A stretch of 64,000 nt of DNA from Candidatus Endomicrobium macrotermitis. GTDB taxonomy: Bacteria > Elusimicrobiota > Endomicrobiia > Endomicrobiales > Endomicrobiaceae. Positions within the stretch are counted from its first letter, which is position 1. Each line of letters begins with the position of its first letter. The notes under the pieces were generated by a model. That model was given only the letters and a program-made list of their open reading frames with translations, was not told the origin of the DNA and ran no database searches. This document shows positions 35,042 to 39,594 of this stretch, piece by piece. The stretch spans positions 36,149-100,148 of the forward strand of contig JAISVT010000039.1 of assembly GCA_031271405.1 (NCBI GenBank). Reading direction: 5' to 3'. The translations under genes were made by a program, and so were the position numbers.

Positions 35042-35200
35042 ATGGAAAAATGGAAATGTGCGGCTTGCGGTTTTGTATATGATCCCGCCAAAGGAGATCC
35101 CGATTCCGGCATAGCTGCAGGAACTCCTTTCGAAAAACTTCCCGAAGATTGGTCTTGTCCCGTATGCGGGGCGGCCAAGGACGCTTTTGAGAAAGAATGA
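35042..35200 (+). CDS. Rubredoxin (52 aa; not in the supplied ORF track)
   Basis: [52 protein letters not shown]; SD ggagg. Confidence 0.97.
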
Positions 35201-35283
35201 TTACGGCAGGCGAATAGAGGCGTAGGCGCATGGACGCACGGCAAAAACAAAAAGTTTTTCCATGCGTCTGTGCATCTTTTAAT

Positions 35284-36531
35284 ATGAAACAAATATATTT
35301 GGACAACCAGTCTAATACCGTTCTTGACGAAAAAGTTTTTGAAGCGATGAAACCGTATTTTTTTGAAAACTACGGAAATCCTCAAAGCATATATTCTTTG
35401 GGCGGCCGCTCTAAAGACGCCCTTGAAACCGCAAGAAAGCAGGTCGCGCAGCTTATAAACGCAAACCCTTCCGAAATAATTTTTACTTCGTGCGCAACGG
35501 AATCCAACAATCTGGCAATAAAAGGCATAGCGGACGCTTATAAGGATAGAGGCAGACATATAATAGTGTCTGCCATAGAGCATTTTTCGGTTTTAAATCC
35601 CGTAAAAAGGCTTGAAAAAGAAGGGTTTGAAGTCACTTATATTCCCGTTGACAATAAAGGGAACGTAAACGAAGCGGAGTTACGGAAAGCTTTAAGAGCC
35701 GATACCGTTTTAGCGTCTATCCAGTTTGCAAACCCCGAAACGGGGACTATACAGAATATAAAAAGGCTTGCGGAGCTGGTCAAAAACGGAAGCAATGCGC
35801 TCTTTCATACCGACGCGGTAAGCGCGTGCGGGACGATACCGGTTGACGTTTCCGATTCGGGCGTTGACGCTTTAACTTTTTCGGCTTCCGTAATGTACGG
35901 CCCGAAAGGCGCGGCTGCTTTATATCTTAAAAAAGGCGTAAGAATAACGCCGCAAATAGAAGGCGGAGTTCAGGAAAACTCGAAACGTTCCGGAACGGAA
36001 AATATTCCCGCAATAGCCGGTTTCGGCAAAGCATGCGAAACGGCAAAATCGGAACTTGCGCAAAACGCGGAAAAAATTAAAGTTTTAAGAGACAAACTCA
36101 TTTCGGGACTTACGGAAAGAATAGAGCATATTTATTTGAACGGCGCGCTTCAAAATGAAAACCGCCTGCCCGTAAACGTGAACTTTTCCATAGAATTTGT
36201 AGAGGGAGAATCGTTGTTTTTGTTATTGGACGCCAAGGGCATTATGGCGGCTTCGGGCTCTGCGTGCGCAAATAAAAACCTGAAACTTTCCCACGTTTTA
36301 AACGCGATGGGCGTTGACACGGCTGTCGGACAAGGGTCTATTTTATTTACGCTTTCAAAGTACAATACGCAAGAAGAGATAGATTGCGTTTTGGAAGAAT
36401 TTCCGAAAATAGTGCAAAGGCTGAGAGACATGTCGCCTTTATATTCTTATTTCGTTAAAACCGGCGAAAGAAAACCGGCCGGACCGGGAACCGATTATGA
36501 CGTGCACGATCACTGCGAAACGCAAGAGTGA
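35284..36531 (+). CDS. iscS: IscS/NifS-like cysteine desulfurase family protein lacking the PLP lysine
   Basis: YLDN, FTSCATESNN, IEH, HTDAV, YGPKG, RSGTEN, SGSAC; SAHK motif reads SASV. Confidence 0.88.
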   Translation: MKQIYLDNQSNTVLDEKVFEAMKPYFFENYGNPQSIYSLGGRSKDALETARKQVAQLINANPSEIIFTSCATESNNLAIKGIADAYKDRGRHIIVSAIEHFSVLNPVKRLEKEGFEVTYIPVDNKGNVNEAELRKALRADTVLASIQFANPETGTIQNIKRLAELVKNGSNALFHTDAVSACGTIPVDVSDSGVDALTFSASVMYGPKGAAALYLKKGVRITPQIEGGVQENSKRSGTENIPAIAGFGKACETAKSELAQNAEKIKVLRDKLISGLTERIEHIYLNGALQNENRLPVNVNFSIEFVEGESLFLLLDAKGIMAASGSACANKNLKLSHVLNAMGVDTAVGQGSILFTLSKYNTQEEIDCVLEEFPKIVQRLRDMSPLYSYFVKTGERKPAGPGTDYDVHDHCETQE

Positions 36532-36687: not shown

Positions 36688-37059
36688 ATGGCGTTTTATT
36701 CGGATAAAGTTATGGATCATTTCGCGAATCCGCGCAATGTCGGCGAAATAAAAGATGCGGACGGCGTAGGCGAAATAGGAAACCCCGTTTGCGGCGATAT
36801 GATGACCTTTTACATTAAAGTAAAAGGCGATAAAATAGAAGACGTGAAATTTAAAACTTTCGGCTGCGGAGCCGCCATAGCCGTTTCGTCCATGGTTTCG
36901 GAAATGGCCAAAGGAAAAACTCTCGACGAAGCTCTTTCCATTACAAACGCCGACGTCGCAAAAGAACTCGGAGGGCTTCCTCCGAACAAAATGCACTGTT
37001 CAAACCTCGGGGCGGACGCTCTTCACAGGGCAATTGAAGATTATAAGAAAAAACAATAA
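36688..37059 (+). CDS. iscU: Fe-S cluster scaffold IscU/NifU-N
   Basis: YSDKVMDHFANPRNVG, CGD, FGCGAAIA, KMHCSNL; SD ggagg. Confidence 0.95.
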   Translation: MAFYSDKVMDHFANPRNVGEIKDADGVGEIGNPVCGDMMTFYIKVKGDKIEDVKFKTFGCGAAIAVSSMVSEMAKGKTLDEALSITNADVAKELGGLPPNKMHCSNLGADALHRAIEDYKKKQ

Positions 37060-37286
37060 TGAAAAAAGAAGAAACGGGAACCGAAAGCCGTTTTTGCGGA
37101 AACTGTAAAAACGGTTCCGGCTGCAATATTTGTCAGACAAAGAAAAATATAAAAATTTGCCCGGCCTGCAAGGCCGAATATCTTGCGCAGTACGGCGAAT
37201 GTCCGTCGTGTTCGGCGGACAAAAAGGAGCGAGGTTATGTCCGCGCGTTTAATAAAAGAGGGGATTTACTCTGTCGGCGCAGTTGA
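37059..37286 (+). CDS. Small Cys-rich (4x CxxC) double-zinc-ribbon-like protein
   Basis: CGNC, CNIC, CPAC, CPSC; starts at the iscU stop; overlaps fprA by ~50 nt. Confidence 0.55.
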   Translation: MKKEETGTESRFCGNCKNGSGCNICQTKKNIKICPACKAEYLAQYGECPSCSADKKERGYVRAFNKRGDLLCRRS

Positions 37287-38430
37287 CTGGAACGAAAGGC
37301 ATTTTCACGGACACACTTACGTTACAAAAAGAGGCGTGACATATAATTCTTACCTGATTATCGACGATAAAATCACTTTGATAGACACCGTCCGCAAAGG
37401 TTTTGAAAAAGAGTTCATAGACAATATCAAAAGCGTAGTCGACCCGTCAAAAATAGACGCCGTGATAATAAACCATATAGAACCGGATCATTCCGGCGCG
37501 TTTCCGGAAATATTAAAACTTTGTCCTGACGCAAATTTTTACGGCACGGAAAAAGCAAAACAGGGTTTGTTCAAATATTACGGCGTTACGGCCAAAAACT
37601 GGACTTCGGTAAAATTCGGGCAAAATATAAATATCGGCAAAAGGACTCTTGAGTTTATAGACGTTCCCATGGTGCACTGGCCGGACAGCATGTTTACTTA
37701 TTCGGCTTACGACAAAGCGCTGTTTTCAAATGACGGTTTCGGCCAGCATTACGCGACCGACAAACTTTTTGACGACGAGGCCGATTTTGCCGTTTTGATG
37801 GAAGAATCGCAAAAGTATTACGCCAATATTTTATGGCCGTTTAACGGCCTTGTGGCGTCAAAACTTGCGGCGATACAAAAATTGAATCTCCCGCTGGAAC
37901 TCGTGCTTCCCAGCCACGGCCTTATCTGGCGCAAACACATATCCGCAATTTTTCAGAAATATCTTTACTGGTCGTCGCACTCATGCCAAAACAAAGTCGC
38001 GATAGTTTATGAAACCATGTGGCAGTCTACCGAAAAAATGGCAAGAAAAATACTTGAAGGAATAATGTCCGAAGGCGTCGAAGCCGCTTTGTTCGACGTT
38101 ACAAAAAACGACAGGACCGACATTTCTTCTTATATGCTTGACGCGAAAGGCTGGGTGTTCGGTTCGTCAACGCATGACGGCGAGATGCTTCCCGCAATAG
38201 CGGGGTTTTTGTGTTTTTTAAAAGGTTCAAAAGCAAAAGGCCGCAAGGCGTTTGCCTTCGGCTCTTACGGCTGGAGCGGCGAAGCGGCAAAAGAAATAGA
38301 AAATACGGCTTCAGGCGTGGCGTCTTTTGAGCCGCCGGTAAAAGCGGTTTTTAATCCTTCGCAAGAAGAACTGCAAAAATGTTTCGAAGCCGGCAAAGAG
38401 TTCGCTAAAAAAATAAAGAGTGCAGAGTGA
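37237..38430 (+). CDS. fprA: Flavodiiron protein (FprA; O2/NO reductase)
   Basis: NHIEPDHSG, HWPD, NDGFGQH, flavodoxin domain YETMWQSTEKMA and FGSYGWSGEA. Confidence 0.95.
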   Translation: MSARLIKEGIYSVGAVDWNERHFHGHTYVTKRGVTYNSYLIIDDKITLIDTVRKGFEKEFIDNIKSVVDPSKIDAVIINHIEPDHSGAFPEILKLCPDANFYGTEKAKQGLFKYYGVTAKNWTSVKFGQNINIGKRTLEFIDVPMVHWPDSMFTYSAYDKALFSNDGFGQHYATDKLFDDEADFAVLMEESQKYYANILWPFNGLVASKLAAIQKLNLPLELVLPSHGLIWRKHISAIFQKYLYWSSHSCQNKVAIVYETMWQSTEKMARKILEGIMSEGVEAALFDVTKNDRTDISSYMLDAKGWVFGSSTHDGEMLPAIAGFLCFLKGSKAKGRKAFAFGSYGWSGEAAKEIENTASGVASFEPPVKAVFNPSQEELQKCFEAGKEFAKKIKSAE

Positions 38431-38472: not shown

Positions 38473-38907
38473 ATGAAAGGATTGGTCTGCAAGTTTTGCG
38501 GCTACGTTGCTCTTGACGGAAAAACCGACGTTTGTCCGGTCTGCCATATGAAAAACGCTTTTGAAGAAAAAGAAGACGCTTATAAAACGCCTGATTTTAA
38601 AGCGGAGAAAGGCGAAAGCGAAAAGAAGCACATTCCTTTTTTTGCTCCGGTAAATGAAAGCGGATTGATACCCGGGACAAAATGCGTCAGGGTAAAGATC
38701 GGCGAAATTCTTCATCCTTCGCTTCCCGAACATTTTATTGCGAACATAACTTTTTATCTGGACAATAAATTTCTGGCACGTATGCAGCTTACGCCGGACG
38801 TCAACCCTGCGGCAGCGGTTCATTTGAAAGAAGGGTCAAAAGGAAAAGTGCAGGTTATAGAAAACTGCAACATTCACGGAAAATGGTATAACGAAACAGA
38901 AATTTAA
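38473..38907 (+). CDS. Superoxide reductase (desulfoferrodoxin family) with N-terminal rubredoxin-like CxxC..CxxC domain
   Basis: CKFC...CPVC; EKKHIP, HPSLPEHFI, CNIHG. Confidence 0.9.
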   Translation: MKGLVCKFCGYVALDGKTDVCPVCHMKNAFEEKEDAYKTPDFKAEKGESEKKHIPFFAPVNESGLIPGTKCVRVKIGEILHPSLPEHFIANITFYLDNKFLARMQLTPDVNPAAAVHLKEGSKGKVQVIENCNIHGKWYNETEI

Positions 38908-39015: not shown

Positions 39016-39594
39016 ATGTCAAAATCGGTTAAAGGAACGCAGACGGAAAAAAATTTGATGCAGTCTTTTGCGGGCGAATCGCAGGCCAGAATGAGGTACA
39101 CCTATTTCGCTTCAAAAGCGAAAAAAGAAGGTTTTGAGCAGATTTCCGCAATTTTTACCGAAACGGCGGACAATGAAAAAGAGCATGCCGAAAGATTTTT
39201 TAAATTTTTGGAAGGCGGAACGGTTGAAGTAAAAGCCTCTTTTCCCGCGGGAATTATAGGGCCTACCACGGAAAACCTTAAAGCCGCGGCGGCAGGCGAA
39301 AATGAAGAACACACTAAGCTTTATCCGGAATTTGCCGATATTGCCGATAAAGAAGGGTTTCCGGAAATAGCCGAATGCTGGAGAAGGGTTTCGGTTGCCG
39401 AAAAACATCATGAAGCCAGATATTTGTACCTTTTAGACAATCTTGATAACGGCAGGGTTTTCAAAAAAGATATGGAAGTCAGATGGAAATGCCGCAACTG
39501 CGGATACGTTTATACGGCGAAAGAAGCCGTAGAAAAATGCCCCGCATGCCTGCACCCGAAAGCCTATATGGAAGAATTGGCAGACAACTTCTAA
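39016..39594 (+). CDS. rbr: Rubrerythrin
   Basis: AGESQARMRY, NEKEHA, GENEEH, EKHHE, C-terminal CRNC...CPAC. Confidence 0.97.
   Translation: MSKSVKGTQTEKNLMQSFAGESQARMRYTYFASKAKKEGFEQISAIFTETADNEKEHAERFFKFLEGGTVEVKASFPAGIIGPTTENLKAAAAGENEEHTKLYPEFADIADKEGFPEIAECWRRVSVAEKHHEARYLYLLDNLDNGRVFKKDMEVRWKCRNCGYVYTAKEAVEKCPACLHPKAYMEELADNF

Follow-up and report, generated by a model that had tools for sequence, protein, structure and literature searches.

A desulfurase homologue without its Schiff-base lysine as probable partner of the only standard IscU found in an Endomicrobium genome

What can a cysteine desulfurase homologue do beside an IscU scaffold once it has lost the lysine on which its chemistry depends? 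The question is raised by a stretch of DNA from Candidatus Endomicrobium macrotermitis (assembly GCA_031271405.1, contig JAISVT010000039.1, forward-strand positions 36,149 to 100,148), analysed as a whole over its 64,000 nucleotides and called the window here. Positions 35284..36531 of the window (+ strand) encode a Lys-less homologue of type-I cysteine desulfurases with a length of 415 aa (PF00266, E=9.7e-75, residues 4-368). This IscS homologue is MisS-like and is referred to as IscS* in the following, and residues of its pocket motif (His205, Lys206) are numbered as in Escherichia coli IscS. In the reading that we consider likely, IscS* is a catalytically dead type-I desulfurase paralogue that was selected as the dedicated partner of the only standard IscU in the genome.

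The SxHKxYGPKG motif of the pocket is degenerate in IscS* and reads SASVMYGPKG (35881..35910, +), as the bases TCG GCT TCC GTA ATG TAC GGC CCG AAA GGC translate to S-A-S-V-M-Y-G-P-K-G, with His205 changed to Ser and Lys206 to Val. FSAHKMYGPKG occupies this site in 9wep, the solved structure nearest in sequence (416 bits). Four base changes separate Ser-Val (TCC GTA) from His-Lys, so that a single-base error is ruled out. Further replacements were read at HTDAVS in place of HTDAVQ (Ser for Gln183), at NPE in place of NNE (Pro for Asn155), at DNQSNTV in place of DxxATTP, and at GSILFT in place of GSVRFS, where codon 354 (36343..36345, +) places Leu at the substrate-binding Arg354. The mobile ASGSAC loop that carries the nucleophile (36250..36267, +) is unbroken and retains Cys328 in the translation. 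The frame from 35284 to 36531 (+) is intact and runs without interruption into a C-terminal extension (36445..36528, +). The extension contains ...KTGERKPAGPGTDY, followed by a His/Asp/Cys-rich end; the tail as a whole reads ...AGPGTDYDVHDHCETQE and the protein ends in ...KTGERKPAGPGTDYDVHDHCETQE. The original prediction for this gene, which had named the altered lysine motif, the change of DAVQ to DAVS, the intact SGSAC, the uninterrupted frame and the extra tail, agrees with the translation and the alignment in all of these. IscS* scores 486.5 on the NifS equivalog model TIGR03402 (cut-off 530.75) and 386.9 on the IscS equivalog model TIGR02006 (cut-off 643.2), and thus falls under both. A start at the in-frame ATG at 35230, which would add 18 residues and has AGAGG about 12 nt before it, was considered and set aside, as homologue lengths and alignments favour 35284. 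A Shine-Dalgarno sequence is not obvious at 35284.

Conservation of the replaced residues was compared between 35 Lys-less orthologues from Elusimicrobiota and 125 canonical homologues. Lysine occupies site 206 in 125/125 canonical homologues and in 0/35 orthologues, among which Gln (25), Val (7), and Met (1) were recorded at this site. Arg354 is likewise present in 125/125 canonical homologues and in 0/35 orthologues. At nine core positions, a residue conserved to at least 80% among the canonical homologues is replaced in the Lys-less clade. Six of them are known positions of the pocket for pyridoxal phosphate (PLP) and substrate or of the ATTP motif, namely the Thr of ATTP, Asn155, Gln183, His205, Lys206, and Arg354. 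For the remaining three (Met147 to Gln, Gly211 to Ala, and the conservative Thr76 to Ser), the change is conservative or the position has no known role. In contrast, the cofactor-holding residues His104, Asp180, Glu77, Ser/Thr76, Ser203, and Thr243' are kept together with Cys328 in 95-100% of the Lys-less orthologues. As residues of pocket chemistry are replaced and cofactor-holders and Cys328 are kept, the loss targets the chemistry and not the whole pocket. Cys328 was found in 35/35 Elusimicrobiota orthologues and in 21/21 other Lys-less homologues. Two lysines on the same loop, Lys331 and Lys334, are invariant in the Lys-less clade and rare in canonical enzymes, and they raise the basicity of the loop. 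The tail motif AGPGTD[YF] is conserved at 90% or more in the 35 orthologues and falls in a gap in 86-98% of canonical homologues. It is followed by a His/Glu run in orthologues generally and by His/Asp/Cys in Endomicrobiaceae, to which the tail Cys is nearly confined. Judged on its sequence, IscS* is incapable of standard PLP-Lys chemistry.

The loss is shared by the relatives of the gene. In a search of a collection of 5.8 billion proteins, the best 120 matches to IscS* showed 67-85% identity, were mostly labelled Endomicrobium or Endomicrobiia, and were all without the His and Lys of the motif. A scan of 151 Elusimicrobiota genomes returned two classes of matches. Class 1 (51-85% identity, tail covered) occurred in 71 genomes, which included 44/44 sampled Endomicrobiaceae and most of the order and class, while class 2 matched at approximately 43-49% identity. 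The 38 class 1 sequences that were read, from 37 genomes, had Lys in 0/38 cases, with mostly Gln at the site and Val in Endomicrobiaceae; Arg354 was found in none of them and Gln183 was gone in all but one. All class 2 sequences that were read carried SxHK, DAVQ, and xRFS. A sequencing error had been named at the outset as what would overturn the prediction, and the absence of Lys from the best 120 matches and from 38/38 orthologues is a strong argument against an error of sequencing or assembly.

IscS* is under strong purifying selection, about equal to that on the canonical desulfurase in the same genomes. In comparisons with the two nearest genomes, the ratio of nonsynonymous to synonymous substitution rates (dN/dS) was 0.13 and 0.08 for IscS* and 0.07 and 0.08 for the canonical paralogue. 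Across 11 genomes with both genes, mean pairwise identity amounted to 69.5% for the Lys-less and 65.7% for the canonical protein, the Lys-less protein being the more conserved in 48 of 55 pairs. The gene is also kept in endosymbiont genomes of 0.6-1.3 Mb.

An IscU-type scaffold of 123 aa (36688..37059, +; PF01592, E=4.2e-52; TIGR03419, 210 over a cut-off of 187.9) lies next to IscS*. Its ligand set is complete with Cys35, Asp37, Cys62, His104, and Cys105, the LPPNK motif is present, and it is the only full NifU_N match in the genome. A weak second NifU_N match was rejected as an IscU because it belongs to a 248-aa protein beside a gene of the GGGtGRT family. That weakly NifU_N-like protein and its GGGtGRT-motif neighbour (L012:48-1893, -, equal to G000:C37) form a separate pair with possible relevance to Fe-S metabolism. 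IscU stands beside 27 of the 32 Lys-less orthologues that were read with their flanks. At the non-Endomicrobiaceae loci where it was found, it lies within 230 nt of IscS* in 26/27 and at 562 nt in the remaining one (L036).

Signs of a partnership were sought in 23 IscU sequences beside Lys-less IscS and nine beside canonical IscS. Identity to the window IscU was 74-89% in the first group and 66-71% in the second, and the groups differ at 14 fixed positions, with the ligands kept in both. Mapped with the Cys37/Asp39 numbering of PMC7585200 and the contact list of Shi et al., two of the 14 positions correspond to parts of IscU that touch IscS in the E. coli complex. One precedes the N-terminal Tyr; the other is residue 42 (Lys42 in E. 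coli), where Thr stands against Arg between the two groups. On the side of IscS*, the clade-specific invariant residues Asp345, Tyr387, and Phe390 are located in or next to the IscU-contact helices α10 and C-terminal α12 of the same list. Such co-variation at the contact elements would be a sign of physical partnership and lends indirect support to a complex.

The remainder of the genome (1.89 Mb, 99.7% complete) was searched for further desulfurases and Fe-S genes. Three strong PF00266 matches were obtained: IscS*, a canonical NifS, and a SerC/AGXT-like aminotransferase, the last of which lies beside serA. The canonical NifS (G000:C40, L001:1420-2616, 398 aa) has SAHK, DAVQ, VRFS, and GATTP and scores 534 on TIGR03402, over the cut-off of 530.75. 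It adjoins mltG and has no IscU beside it. The second desulfurase that had been supposed to exist elsewhere is hence present, and the search for other IscS or SufS yielded this one canonical NifS and nothing of SufS type. This orphan NifS is the only cysteine-sulfur mobiliser found in the genome. SufB and SufD were not found in the genome, an A-type carrier (PF01521) had no match in it, and an Nfu-type carrier is present elsewhere. The two-gene IscS*-IscU unit corresponds to the minimal ISC (MIS) pattern as far as SufBD and A-type carriers are concerned, neither of which was found. IscS* is the partner of the only standard Fe-S scaffold found in the cell, and since the same applies to the scaffold found in Endomicrobiaceae, it cannot be a dispensable spare. 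Canonical enzymes accompany it throughout: 71/71 Lys-less genomes carry at least one further homologue (E <= 1e-30), and 19/19 second copies that were read, from 19 genomes, are canonical with His-Lys.

A precedent is provided by the IscS of Archaeoglobus fulgidus, which is inactive as a desulfurase and donates its Cys as a ligand of a [2Fe-2S] cluster (PMC7585200, PMC8918507, PMC13066941). It binds pyridoxamine phosphate (PMP) non-covalently, its Cys is the fourth ligand of the IscU cluster, and the source of its sulfur is unresolved. The structure of IscS* was modelled with AlphaFold2 from an alignment of 52 orthologues (predicted template modelling score, pTM, 0.83). Low confidence was restricted to the N-terminus, the 226-238 loop, the Cys loop 322-333, and the tail 401-415. 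A low per-residue confidence (pLDDT) is expected for the Cys loop because it is mobile, and the tail is disordered in the model. Foldseek aligned the model to NFS1, E. coli IscS, NifS, and A. fulgidus IscS with template modelling (TM) scores of 0.84-0.94, and A. fulgidus IscS had the highest identity among these with 45-47%.

By analogy, IscS* and IscU would form an A. fulgidus-like (IscS*-IscU)2 complex in which IscS* makes no persulfide itself. The loop with Cys328 would instead take sulfur from an outside donor and hand it to IscU, serve as the fourth ligand of the nascent cluster, or do both, and PLP or PMP may still sit non-covalently in the pocket with a structural role. The tail is predicted to extend beyond the IscU-binding helix; a supply of metal by its His/Asp/Cys residues and of electrons by a neighbouring rubredoxin is speculative. 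The donor in relatives is probably an operonic pair of DsrE2 and TusA, and in the window genome, which has neither, the orphan canonical NifS is the likeliest candidate, free sulfide being the other.

These candidates follow from the architecture of the locus in relatives. Outside Endomicrobiaceae, the cassette consists of Lys-less IscS, IscU, a zinc ribbon, DsrE2, and TusA. At 16/27 non-Endomicrobiaceae loci a TusA of 75 aa (PF01206, E=4e-25) is encoded downstream of IscU, and among six loci read in detail a 156-aa DsrE2 (PF13686, E=4.5e-48) was present in five. The window IscS* nests in the clade of these cassette-borne copies (support 99/98 to 100/99). In its own genome, TusA (PF01206) had no match anywhere, and neither did DsrE/DsrE2 (PF02635, PF13686). 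No stand-alone TusA or DsrE2 was found in 43 Endomicrobiaceae genomes. Thirteen of the 43 have the two domains side by side within a fusion protein of about 800 aa, away from the cassette and as their sole TusA/DsrE2 (for example G085:C10:34562-35101 and G043:C1:836004-836711, and 11 other genomes), and the other 30, including the window genome and that of Endomicrobium proavitum, have neither. A genus from a different family (L016, L034, and L051) has neither TusA nor DsrE2 intact in its cassette, and a canonical IscS directly follows IscU there. At L034 (5168-5343, -; genome G091), two short TusA-like fragments in different frames were observed directly upstream of the Lys-less IscS, and they may be a TusA that decays during its replacement by canonical IscS. 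Three genomes hold both a Lys-less and a canonical IscS-IscU pair.

The operonic DsrE2 and TusA of the non-Endomicrobiaceae orthologues point to delivery of protein-bound sulfur and not to free sulfide alone. Taken as a series, these layouts suggest that sulfur reaches the Lys-less complex bound to protein and that its donor, either DsrE2/TusA or a true desulfurase, is interchangeable, although few evolutionary events underlie this. The original prediction had left the choice between free sulfide and a second desulfurase; the NifS was found, and the carriers of relatives extend the choice beyond free sulfide alone.

The alternative that survives best is a pure scaffold of the A. fulgidus type, in which IscS* docks IscU and lends Cys328, free sulfide of the anoxic gut supplies the sulfur, and NifS works for tRNA thiolation and other cofactors only. 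This is what has been proposed for A. fulgidus IscS, and sulfide can feed Fe-S assembly in desulfurase-deficient E. coli (PMC13015791) and in SMS systems (PMC12192291). The window genome has moreover lost both TusA and DsrE2, and its MnmA gives the canonical NifS another job. On the other side, the ancestral cassette holds two persulfide carriers, which argues for protein-bound sulfur, genomes with IscS* were never without a canonical desulfurase in the sample, and in one genus the canonical gene lies within the same cluster. A source of sulfide was also looked for, and a sulfide-producing cysteine desulfidase of the CyuA type was not found in the genome. We regard the free-sulfide scaffold as a possible but clearly less probable account.

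Several points nevertheless weigh against a dedicated, dead partner that is fed with protein-bound sulfur. That the complex forms, that IscS* is inactive, and by which route it obtains sulfur are all inferred; the earlier claim of a non-desulfurase partner of IscU has stood as far as its sequence-level predictions go, including the complete IscU next door. The canonical NifS may work for nothing but MnmA and other thio-cofactor pathways, in which case free sulfide would be the real source. The operon-linked canonical IscS represents a single evolutionary event in one genus, and the conserved cofactor-holding residues mean that IscS* may have some role that depends on PLP or PMP.

The genes around the pair add an association with oxygen defence. 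A rubredoxin of 52 aa (35042..35200, +; PF00301, E=2.9e-24) lies directly upstream of IscS* and shares 70-76% identity with the rubredoxins that E. proavitum and the endosymbiont Rs-D17 encode at this site; a rubredoxin is also found upstream of the Lys-less orthologue in more remote relatives, at least at two loci (L014 and L017). On its other side, the rubredoxin gene is bordered by a giant gene with tetratricopeptide repeats (TPR). The rubredoxin could be an electron donor to the flavodiiron protein, the superoxide reductase (SOR), the rubrerythrin (Rbr), or the IscU complex.

Downstream of IscU, an open reading frame (ORF) of 75 aa (37059..37286, +) encodes a Cys-rich protein that resembles a double zinc ribbon, with four CxxC-like pairs and 62% identity (tblastn) to a 63-aa ORF of E. 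proavitum. It overlaps the start of the flavodiiron gene by about 50 nt. The window copy has no Pfam or NCBIfam match. Homologous ORFs of 54-62 aa were found between IscU and DsrE2 at six loci (L013, L015, L018, L019, L030, and L032), of which the L019 copy gives a weak DZR match (PF12773, E=4e-5) below the cut-off. This ORF looks like a third, conserved member of the cassette.

It is followed by an FprA-like flavodiiron protein (37234..38430, +) with ODP, Lactamase_B, and Flavodoxin_1 domains (NF008887, E=1e-126, below cut-off), whose gene is also a neighbour of the cassette at six to seven further loci in Elusimicrobiota, other families among them. A superoxide-reductase-like protein of the desulfoferrodoxin family (38473..38907, +; PF01880, E=8.6e-17) and a rubrerythrin (39016..39594, +; PF02915, E=1.3e-31, and PF21349) complete the row. 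The desulfoferrodoxin-family protein is divergent, with an N-terminal rubredoxin-like CxxC...CxxC, and remains under both NCBIfam cut-offs (52 vs 61.9 and 36.5 vs 146.9). The order rubredoxin, IscS*, IscU, zinc ribbon, FprA, SOR, and Rbr is common to the window, E. proavitum (CP009498, with IscS*-IscU at 1432298-1434004), and Rs-D17 (AP009510). In E. proavitum, a Fur-family gene lies upstream of the locus; no homologue of this Fur/PerR gene was found in the window genome (tblastn, E <= 1e-3). An Rfam scan of the region from 34.5 to 40 kb returned no family matches, and consensus sites of promoters and terminators there occurred at or near the level of shuffled sequence and were uninformative.

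With these neighbours, the favoured reading can be extended to a division of labour of a so far undescribed kind, on which all Fe-S supply of the cell would depend in Endomicrobiaceae. NifS would make the persulfide, the dead IscS* would relay it through Cys328 to IscU, and the tail, rubredoxin, and zinc ribbon would deliver iron and electrons, the whole replacing DsrE2/TusA and being wired to oxygen defence. We consider this extended version rather unlikely in its entirety.

The same neighbourhood could also mean that IscS*-IscU is a stress module, which protects or repairs clusters under oxygen in co-regulation with rubredoxin, the flavodiiron protein, superoxide reductase, and rubrerythrin, and which takes no part in housekeeping. 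Both the gene order conserved in the window, in E. proavitum with its upstream Fur-family gene, and in Rs-D17 and the linkage of FprA to the cassette in other families would fit such a module. However, as the 99.7% complete genome yielded only this IscU and no SUF scaffold, IscS*-IscU must also carry out housekeeping assembly, and the oxygen-defence context is compatible with a dedicated partner of IscU and not opposed to it. A purely protective function is therefore improbable.

Still less probable is that IscS* has remained an enzyme that holds PLP or PMP non-covalently or through another lysine, such as Lys331 or Lys334, and desulfurates cysteine or another substrate. The 95-100% conservation of the cofactor-holding residues is in line with this, as is the clade-wide invariance of the two loop lysines, and the K206A variant of E. 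coli IscS retains some PLP binding (PMC9978102). To say that PLP itself has been lost would be too strong for a protein with these residues, given that A. fulgidus IscS binds PMP non-covalently. Gln183, Arg354, His205, and Asn155 are nevertheless gone along with the Lys, and Gln183 and Lys206 are indispensable in E. coli IscS, where Q183E and K206A each abolish activity on their own (PMC9978102). The residue at the Lys site varies within the family between V, A, S, T, and L, as expected for a site without a remaining role. For the D199K variant of A. fulgidus IscS, regained activity was not reported, and the review gives it only as PMP-bound. An artefact or a decaying pseudogene can practically be dismissed in view of the four base changes, the intact frame, the same losses in the best 120 matches and 38 orthologues, and a dN/dS of approximately 0.1.

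The Lys-less proteins reach beyond Elusimicrobiota. Among the best 150 representatives of clusters at 50% identity, 20 are without the Lys, and the member names of these clusters include Latescibacterota, Gemmatimonadota, Zixibacteria, a metagenome-assembled genome labelled 'Proteobacteria', and Odinarchaeota. In an IQ-TREE phylogeny of 66 sequences from which the trait columns had been removed, the Elusimicrobiota orthologues belong to a bacterial clade (24 sequences, support 92/93) in which Arg354 and Gln183 are missing throughout. One member of this clade, the metagenomic P0123 (394 aa), has His-Lys with Gln183 and Arg354 already gone, an indication that, in the bacterial clade, loss of the substrate-binding residues came ahead of that of the Schiff-base Lys. 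The A. fulgidus-like group is separated from the bacterial Lys-less clade by a branch with 99/95 support. A single clade for both was not rejected by the approximately unbiased (AU) test (p=0.065), so that an independent origin of the two types is favoured by the tree but not established.

While this kind of protein is already known from archaea, an inactive IscS has so far been characterised only in A. fulgidus, and IscS1 of Methanosarcina acetivorans has been noted in passing. Here the same kind of pseudo-enzyme is found fixed across a whole bacterial class. New are its breadth in bacteria, the strong selection on it, its partnership with a sole scaffold, the constant presence of a canonical desulfurase, and the reduced, tailed form without TusA and DsrE2 in an oxygen-defence cluster. 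No description of a bacterial Lys-less IscS, of Endomicrobium desulfurases, or of IscS-IscU-TusA-DsrE2 cassettes was found in the literature, and reviews that cover MIS and SMS are silent on Lys-less MisS in bacteria. The natural series from the DsrE2/TusA cassette through the operonic canonical IscS to the reduced form with an orphan NifS provides the candidates for the sulfur donor. As E. proavitum, of the same genus and with the same gene order, is in culture, the function can be tested in a bacterium. If the extended reading with its division of labour is true, the question left open by A. fulgidus, how IscS-IscU can assemble a cluster when desulfurase chemistry is missing, would become directly testable in this species. 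More than 100 database entries called 'cysteine desulfurase' are probably not desulfurases.

Among known systems, the canonical NifS/IscS-IscU pair (E. coli 3LVL) shares with the window the fold, the dimer-forming GTEN loop, the Cys328 loop, the C-terminal IscU-binding helix, and the adjacent IscU gene. It differs from IscS*, in which the catalytic and substrate residues are lost and which fails the NifS cut-off that the paralogue of the same genome passes. The cassettes of other Elusimicrobiota have the orthologous IscS*, IscU, the small zinc-ribbon ORF, and the tail in common with the window, whereas the window has no DsrE2/TusA in operon or genome, Val and not Gln at the Lys site, and a Cys gained in the tail. 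The isc1 cluster of M. acetivorans (IscS1 MA0808, IscU1 MA0807) resembles the window in the lost Lys, the paired IscU, the extra genes, and the co-existing canonical IscS copies; its IscS1 is without PLP-binding residues and its gene is clustered with four genes of unknown function (PMC7585200). In contrast to the window, isc1 is archaeal, its IscS1 gave inclusion bodies and is biochemically uncharacterised, and it is dispensable in an organism that also has SMS/SUF and two other isc clusters, while the Endomicrobium pair is the sole IscU system.

The nearest counterpart is IscS2-IscU of A. fulgidus (PDB 4EB5, 4EB7, and 4HVK; D199K variant 4R5F), a type-I fold with 45-47% identity and TM scores of 0.84-0.94. 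As the original prediction had stated, this IscS is also without the Lys, and the alignment to 4eb5 adds the losses of Gln and Arg (HK to ND, Gln183 to Ala, Arg354 to Leu) in a protein whose Cys loop is unbroken. Both proteins have lost the Lys, His205, Gln183, and Arg354, both keep His104, Asp180, and the Cys of SGSAC, and each has an IscU partner with a complete set of ligands. They differ at the Lys site, which is Asp in A. fulgidus, Val in the window IscS*, and Gln in most orthologues, and at NNE, which is kept in A. fulgidus and reads NPE in IscS*. AGPGTDY and the His-rich tail are present in IscS* and absent from A. fulgidus IscS. Compared with A. fulgidus, the Endomicrobium pair is bacterial, includes the only scaffold found in its genome, and occurs together with a canonical NifS.

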